The position numbers were made by a program. 21,537 nucleotides of DNA from Synechococcales cyanobacterium VAR_4_metabat_354 (lineage in GTDB: Bacteria; Cyanobacteriota; Cyanobacteriia; Cyanobacteriales; Chamaesiphonaceae). This document shows, one piece after another, positions 9,001-15,000 of the stretch. Position 1 is the first letter of the stretch; every line of letters begins with the position of its first letter. Where the stretch lies: contig JANOQI010000013.1 in the NCBI GenBank assembly GCA_031414775.1, positions 1-21,537 on the forward strand, in the 5' to 3' direction.

Positions 9001-12000
9001 CAAAATGCACGAAGAATTTTGGCGCGGCAGCTTGGAGAGTGCGATCGAACATCACCAAAATAAAGAACCCCAAGGGGAATATGTGGTGATTGTGGCTGGA
9101 GCCGAGTTTCTCACGCCCCAATGGTCAGATGATCTGATTAAGACGGAGTTGGTGCAGCTGTTGGCGCAGGGGATCTCTCGATCGGATGCCAGTAAGCAGT
9201 TGGCTTCTTTAACAGCAGTGAACAAGCGACATATTTATCAGCTGTCGCTCCAGATTAGCTAGCGGCAAATGCTTGACGTTAGAATCAGGCTGACACTCCT
9301 CGGCTGAAGTTCAAAGGATTCTAATCGGATGTCTTCCAGTGGGGTAAGGTCATTCTTGTGACTCGGCTTACTCAAAAATAACCTTGAGAGGGTGGAGGAT
9401 TCAGGCAAAATAACGATCCTAAACCCTCCGAAGCACATATTTAACTAATGAACTTTAGGTAGTTTGACAGCTTTGCAGATACAAAGCTTAGGATCGAGAG
9501 CTAAAAAACCTGTAATTCTGGTTATTCGGCTCCCATTTCCTTAGCAGCTGCAACCAGAGATAAGCCCGCAAGCACTTCGGCAAGCTCTTCGGATGAAACC
9601 TGGCCAACTTGGTAGAAGTTTGCACCCACGACAACAAAGGTCGCAAGCAAGTCCTGATGCATAGATCTCAGCAGTAAAAGCAGCGGTGCTAACATCTCTT
9701 ACAACTGGTTGGGATTGAAGGGGAAGATACATAATTTTTTCTCCTGTTTGAATTGTTGAATGTTTGCTTTTTAAGTTTTGAGAGTTTACCTAACACATAT
9801 CACTGGTTCGTGGTACGTGTGCGGCTAGGGTTAGATATTTCATGATAGTTTCACCTTGTTTGAAAAATTCAGCTATCGAACCTCAATCTTCCATACCTTC
9901 CATACTTTCTTCCATACCTTCCATACTTTCTTCTATACCTTCCATGAATTGAGACGGCATTAAGCCTGTCATCCTGCTTGAGATTTTGGCTGTGCTACTT
10001 TTTCCTTTTCTGATTTTGGGTGGGGATTGAATTGGGATTAACATGATTAATTGTTCCTCCGATGGTGTTAATATTTTGTTGCTAGATTCAACTTCCTTCA
10101 GACCAAGACCGCATTGTACCGATACTGACAGGGAGTACATCGCTGACATCAACGGTGAATCGAAATACTCTGGCAGCCATTCGGTTATCTTCTACGTTAA
10201 ATAACCGTAGTTTCACGTCGTAGCAATCTGAATCCGGTCGGCAGACAGGACTCTTCTCTACAGCAATCTCATCAAGTCCGTAATTGCCGACAGCTGCACT
10301 AGTCATCACTTGGACAACCTGGAAGGCATTAGTTGCCGAGAAATTTAGTGCCCGATCCTCTGGCGTTAGACCTAAATTGCGATATTCGTAATAGATGCGT
10401 TCCAAATATTCTCGAACTTTTTGGTTTATATCCTCCTGGTTTGTATCCTCCCGGCTTGCTGCTGGTACGCTGGCCATCAAAGTATTTATTAAAACTGGAA
10501 CTGACCAACTATAAATGCCTCGAATATCCGGTACAATGACGGGGACTGTTTGGCCTGAAAGCAGCCTAACACTACCGCTGATGATTCCGGGAACTGAGAT
10601 GCGCTCTATATTCTCGTCTCCGAGAAACTCAATTAGTCGATCGTATACTGCACTCGCATAGGAACCGGAAGGTACGATTGCGTAGATGGGCGTAGCATCT
10701 AGGTTGAGCGTCCAAATCAGCGATTCTGCTGTATACCTATTTTGTCTGAGATATTCCAGCAAAGTCTGGTTGGGAAGCATAGCTTGCACAAATGAATCTC
10801 GGCGGGCTTCGGTGCCGAAATCAGTTCCTAGTTCTCCCAATGCGTAAACGAGCTGCATTTGATCTTGGCTGCCCGCCGCGCAGGAAGTACACTCAGAAGG
10901 GCTAACAGACGAAGCCACTACCTGGTTGGAAGTTCTGTTCATTGAAATTTCTCTCCTCGAATTTACGGTTGGCTTAAATGCCGGATTCTCGACTGCCGCA
11001 GCTTCTACTCCCACAATCGGTAGCCGAATTAAGGACTCAGATTGAACAACCTGAGCGGCTTCATTTTCTTGGAGCAAGTCCTCAGATGGTTGCTGGTTTG
11101 TGTTTTCTTGAAAGTTATTAGCTTCGCTAGATTCAATCATTGCTTCTTCTATTTTTTCATCAGGCATTGTTTGTTTTTCTCCTTTAATCATCAGGGCTTG
11201 CAGCCCAGGAACATTAAGCCTTCCAACTAAACAGCGCCGAACATCTAAACCCTTTTGTTGGTTACAGGACAGAGCGCTCTTGAGAATGGCCTCACGGACA
11301 GCATGGGAGTCGGGCTTTTCTCCCTGTTTTAGCTGTAAACTAAGCAACAGAGCAGCAATGCCGGAGACAATAGGAGTAGCAAAGCTGGTACCCGTTCGCA
11401 GGGTAGTGCCACCACCGGGAACTGCACCCAGGATGTTGTCGCCAAGAGCAAGAATACCTTGGTTCTTATAAGCTCCGCCCCAATTGCTAAACTCGATAGG
11501 GTTCTCTTGAGAATCCATTGCTCCCACAGCCAATACTGACTCGACAGATGCAGGAACATGAAGGCATTCGCAGCCATCGTTTCCTACAGCAGCAACAATG
11601 AGAACATTTCTGTTCGCACACAAGTGGATTGCTTTGCTAAGCAAGGGGTCGGCCTTGCCAGATGGAGTTAGCTGACCGCCGCTAATATTAATGATATTAG
11701 CCCCCCCTTGAACGGCTTGCTCGATCGCTCGTGCTAAGTCCAGTTGGGAACAGGGTGCAAGTCCACCCCCTCTCCCATCTGTGAAGACGGGGATGACCAA
11801 TCCACGACAACCAGGAGCGATACCACTAATAGTGCTGTTGTGTTGGCCAAAGATGATGCTGGCGACGTGAGTTCCGTGTTGTGAGGCCGATCCTTGATTT
11901 GCAATTCCGGCAAATAGGGTTGGCCGCAGAGTCAGGTTTGCACCGTCAAAGCATGAGTGAGATTGATCAACAGGCCCGTCAAGGACAGCAACACATATGC

Positions 12001-15000
12001 GGGGATCTCCAAGGGACTTTGCCCAGAGAGATTTAAGCCCAGGCAATGCCCCAATATCTGTAAAGCCAACCTTTTCAAAAGCCATTAAATTGAAACCTCC
12101 TGCATCTTCTAAAAAGACCTACCAGGGTTCAAATCAAGATGGTACTTTGGGCTTAGTCCCAAAAATTCAAGACTTTGATTTTATAAGAATTTAAATGATT
12201 TACTCTATAAGAAGGTACTATCCAAATTCCTAAGCTTTTATATATATCAAGTCTTTATTCCTTGATTAGTTCGCCGATTCATATTTAATTATGTTCTTTT
12301 TTTTACACATTGGAAGAGCTTAAGTGAAAAATAAAAGACATAATTATCTCATTTTATTAGCAATAGATTTTACAGTGAAGTCTCATCATTAGATAGTCAC
12401 AAAAACTATACCCCATAAGATTAACAGCTCTAATTAATTACTTGCATATATGAGCACTCAGAGCTGATTTAGAGCCACTTACAGCAATGAAATAGTCCAC
12501 AACTGTATATATTGTGTCTTTTTATTATCACTATTTTCAGTTTGGCTAAAATCAAGATGGCAGTTTTTGCTTGGTCGTTTCAGGGCACTGCGCAGCTAAT
12601 GGATACTTGAATAGCCCATTCGGCAAGGCTTTTGAGTAGCTTGAAGTAAAAATCTGGAAAGCTATATGTATCAAGGCTTGGAAACTTGATCACCCATTAA
12701 GTAAAATGCCATCACCAAATTCTGCTCATGCTCAATACGAAACCGGGCATGACTTCTATTGCAACTGAGATAGTGAAACGAAAATGAAAGTTAGACTATA
12801 CTTAACCTATGCCCAGACTAGATATCATCCACAATTCAGTAAAAAATGCCCTCATCAAAGATGGTTGGTTGATTACCGATGATCCTTACATCATTCAGTA
12901 CAGAAAAACGACACTATACGCCGATCTTGGTGCTGAACGACCTATTGCTGCCGAACGAGGTGGCCAAAAACTTGTAGTAGAAGTCAAAAGCTTTATTGGA
13001 ACATCAAAAATTCAAGACTTGAAAGAGGCTCTTGGTCAGTATGATATATACCGTTATCTGATAGAAGAAACAGCTCCAGAGCGTAAGCTGTATATGGCGA
13101 TCAGCGAAACTGCCTATAAAACCTTTTTTACTCAAGACGTAGCCCAGTTAATCATCAACAAACATCAATTACCAGTAATCATTATCAATGTTGATACAGA
13201 GGAAGTTGTAAAATGGATAAAATAACCTATTACCCTGAACTAATCAAACGAATTTTGACTGAGTATATAGAATTAAGTAACCTTCATTCCCACTCCGATA
13301 TTGAGCAATTTCTGATTGTGGATGAAGCCAAAGCTCACTATATCTGGATGAATCTTGGTTGGCAAAAAGGCGATCGAATCACTGGCATGACAGTCTATGT
13401 GAGAATCCGTGATCACAAATTTTGGATCGAAGAAGATTGGACTGAAGACGGAATCGCCACCGACTTAGTTCATGCCGGTGTTCCTCGGGAAGATATTGTG
13501 CTGGCATTCCATGAACCTAAAATGAGACAGTACACAGATTTTGCTGTTGCCTTATCATCGTGAGACATGTTGCGAGATCGCAGCTATATTTCTGATAATC
13601 TTAACAATTAGCAAAGAGGCCATTCAAGCCCCAGTGTCATTGTTTTGAAAATTTCCGCCAAATAATGTCAGGTCGATCTTGTAAATATTATTCGGTGACT
13701 TCATCGAGGGTAAGTTTCTGCATGGGTTTGATACTCCTACCAAACTGAGAGCCAATTATTACCAAATTTTACTCAAGCTCAATACAAAACCGGGCATGAC
13801 TTCATTGCAATTGATCGAAGCAGGAGATTCCAATACCTCTGGCTCTTGTCCTGGTCGGTATATCTCTACCTGCTTGTTTGTGGGATTGATAAGCAAACCC
13901 AGTCTCACTCCTAACCGTTGATATTCCTTCATCTTCTCCTGCAACGGCTTTAAACCATCCGTGGTCGATCTCAGCTCAATTACAAAATCAGGAACGACTG
14001 GACAGAATTGTTCGATCGAAACACCTTCCATGCGAGATTTTTCAATCCAAGATGTATCAGGAGAAAGCATCCCACCGCCGAGTGCCATAAAGTCAGGGAT
14101 GGAAGCCGTCTATTGCTCTTTCGATCGCTTAATGTTCAAACAAGCCCAGCCCTCTTGCTGCCATACCGAACCCAAATCCCAGCCATATCTTTCTAATTGC
14201 TGTGCCACATCAGACACCTGAGAACTGAGAATACCACTCAAAATCCCCCAGCCCCTGGGCTTCACTAGTTCGCCCATCTGCGGGATTAAATCAATAATTA
14301 CATTGGCCAGAATATTACAGACAAAACCATCTAGAGGTTCGGGGATCAACGTCAGCAGCATTTCGATGCTGCCTTCAGCCACTTGGAGTTGATCGATCGG
14401 CAGCCCATTCAATTCCATATTTTCAGTGGTGGCCTTCACTGCCAAGGAATCAGTATCTGTGGCGTAGACTTGCTTGGCTCCCAGCATCAAGGCCGCCACG
14501 CCCAAAATGCCAGAACCACAGCCCAAATCACCAATAATTAGCCCCGTCTGGCTGGGATTCACCCGCATTTCTAACGCTTTGAGACACAATTGGGTAGTTG
14601 CATGGGTACCAGTACCAAAGGCGGAACCAGGTTCCAGTTTAATAATCAATCGATCGGTTACCGGTGGTTGTAACCAAGCCGGATTGATCAAGAGACGATG
14701 ACCAATTTCCATCGCTTGCCAGTGATCTTTCCAGCTTTTGGCCCAGTCTTCTTCATCAATGAGCCGACAGCCCCCCATTGGTACCGAAACCTTCATCAGC
14801 CGGGCATCTTGCTCAAACTGCGCCAAAAAGGCCGATATTTTGGGTAAATCAGCTTGAATCTGGGGAATATAAGCCTTAATCATCAGACCTTCGCTCTGCT
14901 GATGCGTGGCCATCCCCTTGCAGCCGAAGTTTTCCAATCGCCAAAAAATCGTCTCCTCCAATATCGGATGACAGTTGATTTCGATTTCCCACCATTTATT

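Follow-up and report, generated by a model that had tools for sequence, protein, structure and literature searches.

Organization of the locus

The window analysed here, a stretch of 21,537 nt from the cyanobacterial contig JANOQI010000013.1, carries on its minus strand a gene for a PatA-type subtilisin (g00336), with two short open reading frames (ORFs) directly downstream of it. The features are as follows:

10088..12085, minus strand: PatA-type cyanobactin N-terminal protease, 665 aa, with Peptidase_S8, PatG_D and PatG_C domains (Pfam)
9883..10044, minus strand: second leader-box ORF, 53 aa (short form of g00335), with GGAGG at 10060-10056
9741..9745, minus strand: AGGAG, Shine-Dalgarno-like, 8 nt upstream of the ATG of the 63-aa ORF (sequence reading)
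9541..9732, minus strand: precursor peptide gene of 63 aa, uncalled, with the ATG at 9732-9730 and the stop codon at 9541-9543
9655..9732, minus strand: predicted leader, residues 1-26, consisting of the box (1-13), V-S-T-A and the predicted cut site E-I-Y-A-S
9544..9654, minus strand: predicted core, residues 27-63, 37 aa with 8 Cys, net basic

The protease consists of the S8 domain (approximately residues 30-275), a variable linker, PatG_D (413-490) and PatG_C (548-661). It scores 714 bits on TIGR03895, against a cut-off of 421, and its best PDB matches are to the PagA/PatA protease (4h6w, 1e-114; 4h6v, 7e-100), whereas the PatG macrocyclase 4aks is matched far more weakly (4e-56). The catalytic residues D36, H70 and S234 and the oxyanion residue N169 are invariant in all ten PatA-only proteases compared. 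As the single PatG_C match and the single PatA/PatG homolog in its own genome, the enzyme is a stand-alone PatA-type protease, in line with the earlier note. No signal peptide was recognized on reading its sequence, and no linked exporter was found.

The 63-aa precursor peptide

All eight Cys of the 63-aa ORF lie within residues 30-63. Residues 4-12 match P-x4-P-V-x-R; the leader motif of cyanobactin precursors is given in a passage of PMC3428304 as (KKN)xxPxxxxPVxR, of which the KKN part is absent here. The ORF overlaps a 57-aa ORF (9522..9695) on the same strand in another frame, an overlap of the kind that had been pointed out before. A profile built from 99 database homologs was searched against 79,277 six-frame ORFs of its own genome, and the 63-aa frame was the sole significant match (E 4.3e-8), the next-best E-values being 1.1 and 1.4. 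The full motif occurs at the start of only two ORFs in the genome, both adjoining the protease. Over its full length, the peptide is 44-55% identical to P0040 and to two ORFs of another locus (L066). The subfamily alignment gives it two more Cys than its 6-Cys relatives, and a 12-nt duplication at 9568-9592 accounts for one of these extra Cys.

Judged by its Shine-Dalgarno site, the profile E-value and its full-length homologs, the 63-aa ORF is real, and the earlier reading of an uncalled peptide with a leader motif and an 8-Cys core is thereby upheld. The Pfam scan of the ORF returned no match, and on the curated precursor models (TIGR03678, TIGR04446 and NF042906) it stays far under the cut-offs, with 12 bits against 39.6 for TIGR03678. 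A C-terminal recognition tail of the AYDG or FAGD type is absent, the peptide ending at its final Cys.

The second ORF

The second ORF is composed of the box, an S-T-A-K-I stretch, a G-L-M-P-S site and an acidic Met/Glu repeat of seven residues, this core being a 21-nt tandem repeat (2.8 copies, 97% match, 9887-9945). Its only entry in the public protein database is a longer call of 88 aa (P0087). The ORF obtained an E-value of 1.4 in the precursor-profile search, its core has no homolog among the 100 database matches, and it matches none of the three curated precursor models named above. Hence, although the same box and an acidic repeat core are present as first described, the ORF is, by sequence, a weak, motif-level member of the family that has only the box in common. 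It is probably a diverged or recently remodelled paralog.

Leader, predicted cut site and core across the family

The leader of the family has approximately 26-30 residues and comprises the box M-x-L-P-x-Q-x-x-P-V-x-R, followed by a [GA]-[VIL]-x-[PA]-[SQ] site; the C-terminal core is hypervariable. Across 20 precursors, P4, Q6, P9 and R12 show little or no variation, and S26 is invariant in 14 of the 14 subfamily members aligned. The A-E-I-Y-A-S of the window aligns to E-I-E-A-S, T-V-E-A-S and G-I-x-P-S of the closest homologs; it deviates in having Tyr in place of the consensus Glu or small polar residue, and Ala-Glu in place of the Gly of most members. The textbook G-V-E-A-S is present in Cys-free relatives. 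According to a passage of PMC10885120, G(L/V)E(A/P)S is the sequence behind which published PatA and PatA-like enzymes cleave. From the alignment and this specificity we infer a cut after Ser26, which agrees with the PatA-type cleavage position predicted previously.

Even Cys counts prevail in the cores, with 75 even and 7 odd counts and 33 cores without Cys among 115 distinct cores, and 53 even against 3 odd in a set of 112 peptides, although these are not independent events because the two sets overlap and include relatives. Cys positions are retained while other core residues vary, and the two Cys missing from the 4-Cys variants of one core family are the same pair each time. The even counts and the paired loss support disulfide bonding of the cores, and with it the disulfide-rich product that the earlier note had put forward. 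Its description of a cysteine-rich family is accurate for many cores and does not extend to the 33 that have no Cys. Many unrelated Cys frameworks are found, and in many cores the Cys spacing is knottin-like or that of a C-x3-C hairpin; the core of one relative reaches 22.8 bits on the Toxin_7 knottin model, below the cut-off of 27.

The PatA-only clade and its linkage to leader ORFs

In a tree with 16 canonical PatA proteases, all ten PatA-only proteases group in a single clade (SH-aLRT 99) that is sister to the canonical ones, which corresponds to one state change. A larger tree of 101 rows presents the same split (65 vs 33), with supports of 100 and 99. Leader ORFs lie downstream of the protease in nine of nine informative loci of the phylum sample. 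When the PatA-only-clade loci with at least 500 nt of downstream sequence are considered, 45 of 54 have strict leader ORFs just downstream, and seven of the other nine have Cys-rich ORFs with a relaxed leader; the remaining two (L049 and L078) have no leader ORF, strict or relaxed. Leader ORFs number 130 in 201 kb downstream of the protease versus 15 in 1,617 kb elsewhere, an enrichment of approximately 70-fold, and leader-box ORFs occur in one to eight copies per locus. Like every other point of the earlier note that could be checked, the leader ORFs beside protease relatives were borne out; most of these points could be carried further. The pairing of protease and short peptide genes recurs in dozens of other genomes, and the leader-bearing peptide family extends beyond cyanobacteria. 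By these sequence comparisons, the 63-aa ORF is a member of a large leader-bearing family located directly downstream of PatA-only proteases.

Partner enzymes

Within its own genome, which is 99.96% complete, neither a second PatG_C gene nor a YcaO match (PF02624) was found, so the claim that no macrocyclase or heterocyclase lies nearby can be widened to the genome. The 25 larger ORFs scanned on the 21.5-kb contig are all housekeeping or mobile-type genes, with no gene for tailoring or transport, no Peptidase_C39 and no ABC transporter among them. There is no conserved tailoring gene among 146 neighbour ORFs of ten loci, and no enzyme family besides the protease is conserved among 311 ORFs of 25 clade-A loci. 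The earlier note cautioned that further enzymes might lie more than 1500 nt from the protease of the relatives; accessory genes AAA_35 and CAP recur beside some clade-A loci, and in one clade-A relative (L050) a PatG-like gene lies downstream at a distance of 5 kb.

Comparison with known systems

The protease has the same S8 + DUF architecture as those of canonical cyanobactin pathways (patellamide, anacyclamide, prenylagaramide and piricyclamide types), and the 63-aa ORF has the N-terminal P-x4-P-V-x-R box of their precursors. Canonical G(L/V)E(A/P)S-type protease sites resemble those in relatives of the 63-aa peptide, and the canonical pathways also have hypervariable cores, often several precursor genes per locus and, in some cases such as the piricyclamides, disulfides. 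In the trees, however, the window protease falls outside canonical PatA, in the sister clade. Canonical azole genotypes have a YcaO heterocyclase, which this genome lacks, and canonical cyanobactins are rings of 6-20 residues, whereas PatA-only cores have approximately 20-60 residues with 4-10 Cys. The canonical tails observed (YDGEDAE etc.) were confined to loci of the canonical clade, where MPQQAQP-type precursors with such tails are present, as had been reported for these more distant relatives. Given that the genome has no PatG macrocyclase and the window precursor has no recognition tail, the product is not cyclisable from N- to C-terminus by the known route.

Linear cyanobactins (aeruginosamides, viridisamide and muscorides) are described in a passage of PMC4663559 as PatA-dependent and non-cyclic, and in both respects they resemble the product proposed here. 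They nevertheless measure only 3-5 residues and bear azole, prenyl and methyl ester groups, and their clusters retain, besides a heterocyclase and a methyl- or prenyltransferase, a protease or oxidase of PatG type; none of these was found for the window locus.

In double-glycine-leader/C39 exporter systems (class II bacteriocins, Nif11/NHLP), it is likewise a conserved leader that guides a dedicated protease, which frees diverse cores, otherwise unmodified or lightly modified, with several genes per locus. The likeness is one of working principle, since the window leader is unrelated and has no Gly-Gly before the core, the protease is of the S8 and not the C39 type, and the window ORFs scanned include no fused ABC exporter. 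In conotoxins, knottins and plant alpha-hairpinins, too, the N-terminal region is conserved, the Cys frameworks are hypervariable and the Cys numbers even; the likeness to these is an analogy only, given that the hosts here are bacterial, with no signal peptide and no significant fold or sequence match for the window peptide. An alpha-hairpinin-like layout consists of two helices, each with C-x3-C, that two disulfides cross-link; the core of the 63-aa peptide has C-x3-C pairs at residues 30/34 and 51/55, besides a G-C-x-C at its C-terminus, and AF2 predicts helices at 28-38 and 45-55 separated by a loop (mean pLDDT 68.6). Foldseek found no PDB match for this model at E <= 0.001.

Proposed maturation and rival explanations

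We propose that the locus is a two-part peptide maturation cassette, made of a stand-alone PatA-type subtilisin and one or more short downstream genes. The protease would recognize the predicted site and cut the 63-aa product after Ser26, releasing a linear, basic peptide of 37 residues, whose eight Cys would pair into up to four disulfides once outside the reducing cytoplasm. Maturation would consist of leader removal and oxidation alone, with no part for a macrocyclase, a heterocyclase or any other tailoring enzyme. Such a peptide would probably be stable, exported and bioactive, of an antimicrobial or signalling kind. Taken as a whole, this reading of the sequences is one we consider reasonably probable.

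Modification of the released or uncleaved peptide in trans, by enzymes encoded elsewhere in the genome (radical SAM, lanthionine-type or other thiol chemistry), so that the product is not a plain disulfide peptide, is in our judgement unlikely. The genome-wide enzyme search covered PatG_C and YcaO only, one relative (L033) lies 5-10 kb from a LanM and Nif11 pair, a sister subclade has a linked LCM-type methyltransferase, and AAA_35 and CAP recur as described. However, these last two are absent from the window and are not known to modify peptides, the protease is the only enzyme conserved across the 25 clade-A loci, and both the Cys parity and the joint loss of Cys are consistent with simple disulfides. 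The Cys parity of both peptide sets and the paired loss and gain, expected of disulfides and not of metal clusters, also speak against a role in metal binding, where the Cys-rich core and the Met/Glu-rich second core would supply thiolate and thioether ligands, as in metallothioneins or chalkophores. To such a role we assign a small probability, despite the high Cys density of the core (8 of 37 residues) and the M-x-x-M spacings in the repeat of the second ORF, which may resemble Cu(I) motifs. A metal-related role is argued for another cyanobactin in a passage of PMC13266932, yet the knottin-like or C-x3-C hairpin spacings of many cores and the 33 of 115 members without any Cys do not favour one here.

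PatB/AcyB/McaB proteins (TIGR04220) occupy the same slot, right after canonical PatA, and carry the same 13-residue N-terminal box: when PatB is compared with the precursor profile by hhalign, only the first 13 residues align (probability 93%, E 3.3e-7). Many of them end in Cys-x-Cys, like the window peptide, and a passage of PMC4259220 reports PatB, whose role is unexplained, as non-essential. The leader-box ORFs could then be PatB-like partners or regulators of the protease, such as inhibitors or chaperones, instead of substrates giving an exported peptide, but this seems very improbable. PatB has a conserved body of approximately 60 residues and is one conserved protein per cluster, whereas the window family is hypervariable, its copy numbers and unrelated Cys frameworks being the signature of a product; in addition, neither window ORF matches TIGR04220 (the PatB body, cut-off 55 bits), and a predicted PatA-type cut site follows the leader. 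A decayed canonical cluster, which has lost PatG, PatD and its true precursors and keeps the small ORFs as drifting leftovers, can scarcely be credited as the origin of the locus. Many genome-mined cyanobactin clusters have been judged non-functional (a passage of PMC4558948, citing Leikoski 2013), and the second ORF has a recent tandem repeat as its core; yet PatA-only proteases form one old, well-supported clade and not scattered losses, their catalytic residues are unchanged, the leader ORFs are intact and concentrated downstream of the protease, and Cys positions are held while the rest of the core varies.

Implications

No published description of this arrangement of protease and peptides was found in the literature. 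Under the cassette reading, the lone PatA and its cysteine-rich precursors point to an undescribed route to small disulfide-bonded peptides. A broader possibility, which we advance tentatively and regard as doubtful, is that the 13-residue box is a portable address tag common to canonical cyanobactin precursors, PatB proteins and the peptides of PatA-only loci, that its reader is the DUF half of PatA, conserved yet functionally unexplained, and that the cassette is a general, widespread system. If this were true, the cassette would mature diverse small disulfide-stapled peptides and mini-domains (hairpin-like, knottin-like, lectin module) as well as Cys-free amphipathic peptides, and the system would span cyanobacteria and several other phyla and form the bacterial equivalent of the conotoxin-style gene superfamilies. 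PatA would also act on PatB, and the cyanobactin pathway that yields macrocycles would have branched off as a specialised version of this machinery.

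Locus layout and protease type

The genome has a size of 3.56 Mb and a completeness of 99.96%, and the window is one whole contig of 21,537 bases. Three genes lie in a row on its minus strand: a protease, a 53-aa ORF (the second ORF) and a 63-aa ORF (the precursor).

Genes of the cassette (window coordinates, strand, description)
10088-12085, minus strand: protease, 665 aa, with Peptidase_S8, PatG_D and PatG_C by Pfam
9883-10044, minus strand: second ORF, 53 aa, with GGAGG upstream
9541-9732, minus strand: precursor ORF, 63 aa, with an ATG start and AGGAG 8 nt upstream

The protease passes the curated PatA/PatG model TIGR03895 with 714 bits (cut-off 421). 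It is of the PatA type, since the N-terminal protease structures of PagA and PatA match it in one continuous stretch (E 1e-114 and 7e-100) and far better than the PatG macrocyclase domain, which reaches an E value of only 4e-56 and is split over two stretches. Residues D36, H70, N169 and S234 are unchanged in all ten PatA-only relatives. The earlier note had described a stand-alone PatA/PatG subtilisin without heterocyclase or macrocyclase, and the genome agrees: it contains no YcaO match, and its sole PatG_C match is the PatA-type protease itself. The claim that no prenyltransferase lies nearby stands for the window, to which that search was limited, with none found among the 25 ORFs scanned.

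No pathway gene was found among these 25 other window ORFs, which are all of housekeeping or mobile type and include RsmI, PrmA, SerA, alanine racemase, an ABC1 kinase, XisH/XisI and Uma2. Small mobile-type or defence-like genes flank the cassette (12809-13563, 13759-14088, 1006-1635 and 17699-19243), comprising a XisH/XisI pair, two Uma2-family genes, one of them truncated, and a DUF4041 + T5orf172 protein. The base-composition profile of the window presents no clear island signature. Between 9200 and 12500, four promoter-like sites were found against 4.7 expected, and no terminator-like site against 3.5 expected. The public sequencing sets that match the window DNA are all DNA contigs of sediment metagenomes, with no RNA set among them.

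The 63-aa ORF and its neighbour

The 63-aa ORF is a real gene that was missed by gene calling, as the earlier note had claimed, and it is absent from the protein database. Its N-terminal leader box, of the cyanobactin type, contains P-x4-P-V-x-R at residues 4-12, and every cysteine of its 8-Cys core lies within residues 30-63; motif and core are thus as first described. A profile of 99 database homologs, from which the window's own sequence was excluded, was searched against all 79,277 stop-to-stop ORFs of the genome that are 25 aa or longer. The 63-aa frame is the only significant match (E 4.3e-8), with the caveat that an alignment containing window sequences had been used to find the 99 homologs; the runners-up reach E 1.1 and 1.4. 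In a motif scan of the genome, short ORFs that begin with the full box occur at two places only, the 63-aa ORF and the second ORF. Full-length identity to the 63-aa ORF is 44% for database protein P0040, 53-55% for two ORFs of locus L066 and 54% for one ORF of locus L054. A 57-aa ORF in another frame (9522-9695), which overlaps the 63-aa ORF, was rejected as a real gene because it has no Pfam match and the family profile picks the 63-aa frame instead.

The second ORF starts with the same motif and has the acidic repeat core previously ascribed to it, in the form of three copies of an acidic Met/Glu heptad. This core was built by a recent 21-nt tandem repeat (x2.8, 97% identical, 9887-9945). 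The leader stretch resembles that of some relatives, and G-L-M-P-S stands at the expected site. The ORF is present in the public protein database only as a longer 88-aa call, P0087, which overlaps the protease gene. No homolog of its core was found among 100 database proteins related to the precursors, and its family-profile score, the runner-up at E 1.4, is not significant. The second ORF is probably a diverged paralog of uncertain function.

Relatives in other genomes

A PatA/PatG homolog was found in 35 of the 401 genomes sampled from the phylum. It stands alone in G144, G011, G196, G246, G242, G344, G050 and G372, and at a second locus of G164. Ten stand-alone places were examined, with 10-20 kb around each. 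Eight of them carry one to five leader-box ORFs directly downstream, and a ninth (L038) carries two ORFs with a degenerate box on six-frame reading, which upholds the earlier observation of such ORFs beside related proteases; in the tenth (L041) the contig edge falls inside the protease gene.

Searching the protein database with an alignment of 20 precursors yielded 100 proteins at E <= 0.01 among 225 candidates. Their named sources include Planktothrix, Arthrospira, Microcystis, Tolypothrix, Roseofilum, Okeania, Gloeocapsopsis, Nostoc, Moorena, Symploca, Calothrix, Microcoleus, Coleofasciculus and an unclassified Oscillatoriaceae genome. All are hypothetical or nameless except one, which is a mislabelled entry, and a precomputed Pfam domain exists for one of the 100. 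Certain cores that follow the leader can be recognised as mini-domains. That of P0062 (like an ORF in L058) matches the MVL mannan-binding lectin module (PF12151) at 43.5 bits. P0090 (like an ORF in L051) has a knottin-like spacing near Toxin_7, at 22.8 bits, below the cut-off of 27.

Scanning the genome collection with the protease as a single sequence returned no loci; scanning it with a protease alignment returned 80 more. Strains of Nostoc, Cylindrospermum, Pannus and Gloeocapsopsis are among the named records that carry loci of the PatA-only clade. Beyond cyanobacteria, PatA-only homologs with leader ORFs were found in MAGs labelled Alphaproteobacteria, Hyphomicrobiales, Ca. Electronema, Blastocatellia, Thiomargarita and Methanosarcinaceae, some of which may be mis-binned. 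Loci under non-cyanobacterial labels with leader-box Cys-rich ORFs are L074, L083, L086, L087, L094, L099, L105, L108 and L109, and the window core resembles several cores from such MAGs. The peptide of L047, labelled Rhizobium, is of a typical Nostocales type.

Protease tree and linkage to leader ORFs

A first tree, of 29 homologs with PatG-type sequences as the root, groups the ten PatA-only proteases in a single clade (SH-aLRT 99). Its sister group is made up of 16 PatA whose loci contain PatG as well (98), and one change of state explains the distribution. A larger FastTree tree of 101 rows, from which eight loci with partial proteases were left out and in which five loci appear twice as identical rows (phylum sample and genome collection), repeats the split: 65 rows (support 100), referred to as clade A, against 33 (99), the canonical clade. 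A second PatA/PatG homolog lies within the DNA examined at 11 of 80 loci, ten from the canonical clade and one from clade A. The latter, L050 (a Tolypothrix record), encodes a 798-aa PatG-like protein with S8, PatG_D and PatG_C 5 kb downstream of its PatA-only-type protease (L050:9707-12103).

The tree includes 55 clade-A loci, of which 54 have at least 500 nt of downstream sequence. In 45 of these 54, one or more strict leader ORFs lie on the protease strand no further than 4 kb away. Of the nine others, seven (L085, L088, L089, L090, L095, L101 and L104) have Cys-rich ORFs with a relaxed box from which the second Pro is gone; L049 and L078 have neither a strict nor a relaxed leader ORF. The 201 kb of downstream sequence contains 130 strict leader ORFs (0.65 per kb); the 1,617 kb elsewhere, counted on both strands, contains 15 (0.009 per kb). 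Both the peptide family and its linkage with a separate PatA clade are firmly supported.

Genes around the protease

Neither YcaO nor a second PatA/PatG homolog was found by Pfam among 146 neighbour ORFs of PatA-only loci. Clustering was applied to 25 clade-A loci, one of them the window, and took in the 311 ORFs that lie up to 7 kb from the protease; the protease alone proved universal and no conserved tailoring gene was found. The earlier note had allowed for further enzymes past the 1500 nt read on each side; within 7 kb no conserved tailoring gene appeared, and one locus, L050, has its PatG-like gene at 5 kb.

An ATPase family, AAA_35 (PF14516), is present in 12 of the 25 loci, mostly divergent upstream, one being NB-ARC/NACHT by Pfam. 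AAA_35 loci are L042, L045-L047, L051, L053, L054, L057, L059, L066 and L081, and some of these genes are fusions that include GAF, PAS or kinase domains. Six of the 25 (L046, L047, L052, L053, L056 and L063) have a small CAP-domain gene after the precursors. Both AAA_35 and CAP genes are absent from the window.

A second kind of PatA-only locus encodes two to five Cys-free amphipathic peptides with a G-V-E-A-S or G-V-D-P-S site, and adds an LCM-type methyltransferase (PF04072), a PatB-like 78-aa protein, and a patatin or Tle1-like phospholipase. Loci of this kind are L037, L039, L040, L061-L073, L080, L082, L112 and L117. At L033 (10114-13844), the PatA-only cassette has a LanM-type lanthipeptide synthetase and a Nif11 precursor at a distance of 5-10 kb, and at L034 the protease is separated from its leader ORFs by an ORF with a Nif11 domain.

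Predicted cleavage and disulfide framework

All precursors have one layout: the box, some 10-15 further residues, the site [GA]-[VIL]-x-[PA]-[SQ], and finally sequence that cannot be aligned. In Cys-free members the site is G-V-E-A-S or G-V-D-P-S, which is the PatA recognition sequence given as G(L/V)E(A/P)S in PMC10885120. In the subfamily alignment of the 63-aa ORF, the window site E-I-Y-A-S aligns with E-I-E-A-S, G-I-E-A-S and T-V-E-A-S, and its Ser is unchanged in 14 of 14 sequences, so that the PatA-type cleavage position proposed earlier agrees with the homologs. Given this invariant Ser, the site alignment and the published recognition sequence, the protease would cut the 63-aa precursor after Ser26, releasing a 37-residue basic core. 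A predicted complex of protease residues 1-310 with the precursor scored 0.26 (mark 0.32), which counts neither way.

Core cysteines were counted in two sets. The first comprises 99 database hits, the window peptide and 12 peptides from loci, with some duplicates; the second comprises 115 distinct non-PatB peptides from 54 clade-A loci, the core being taken roughly as everything from 8 residues past the box.

Peptides per number of core cysteines
First set (n = 112): 0 Cys, 56; 1 Cys, 2; 2 Cys, 5; 3 Cys, 1; 4 Cys, 20; 6 Cys, 22; 8 Cys, 6
Second set (n = 115): 0 Cys, 33; 1 Cys, 2; 2 Cys, 6; 3 Cys, 2; 4 Cys, 12; 5 Cys, 3; 6 Cys, 44; 8 Cys, 9; 10 Cys, 4

Even numbers outnumber odd ones by 53 to 3 in the first set and by 75 to 7 in the second, in related sequences that are not independent trials; the same parity is seen in at least 12 unrelated frameworks. 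One widespread core family comprises a 6-Cys form and 4-Cys variants; the second and the fourth Cys of the former are missing together from the latter. The window peptide exceeds its 6-Cys relatives by two Cys. A recent 12-nt tandem duplication (x2.1, 9568-9592) inside the Cys-rich core adds one of these two.

AF2 on the subfamily alignment gives a helix at 28-38, a loop and a helix at 45-55 (mean pLDDT 68.6, no residue at or above 90), a predicted fold that would set two C-x3-C pairs face to face. Foldseek found no match for this model in the PDB at E <= 0.001; its non-significant rows include disulfide-stapled helical hairpins. From the sequences we infer, with good motivation, that cleavage would occur after Ser26 and that the product would be linear with four disulfides.

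PatB and the leader box

In canonical loci the ORF directly after PatA is PatB (TIGR04220, 107-134 bits, 14 ORFs: L091, L096-L098, L103, L107, L110, L111, L113, L116 and L118-L121). By hhalign, the first 13 residues of PatB match the precursor box (probability 93%, E 3.3e-7), and many PatB proteins end in Cys-x-Cys at the C-terminus. PatB-like proteins of PatA-only subclades lie between the two groups, with 25-85 bits on TIGR04220. PatB is reported to be non-essential and of unknown role (PMC4259220), and no binding of the PatG DUF to a precursor was found in the same study. The latter speaks against the proposal that the box is read by the DUF, the domain tested there being that of PatG and not of PatA.

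Relation to cyanobactins and significance

The window cassette has the protease and the leader of cyanobactins, but it lacks the macrocyclase of the class, the C-terminal tail and the curated precursor signature, and its predicted product would be a different kind of molecule. The earlier note knew of no paper on such a system, and our literature search likewise returned no description of PatA-only loci with Cys-rich precursors. An earlier mention is possible in Leikoski et al. 2013 (Chem Biol 20:1033), whose survey of 126 genomes, as cited in PMC4558948, classed many clusters as non-functional.

Research on cyanobactins and the tools for mining them focus on the PatA + PatG pair and on small macrocycles; PatA-only loci are easily written off as incomplete, and their precursors are often uncalled. 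If the proposal is true, about two thirds of the sampled PatA homologs (65 of 98 PatA-type rows, five loci counted twice) would serve a different product class, namely gene-encoded, linear peptides that are 20-60 residues long and whose cysteine frameworks are of many distinct kinds. This would amount to a large natural library of stable scaffolds and to a simple two-gene system for making disulfide-rich peptides. It would also give a testable role to PatB and to the conserved N-terminus of the leader, both old unknowns of the pathway, and the PatA DUF domain may gain a role too.
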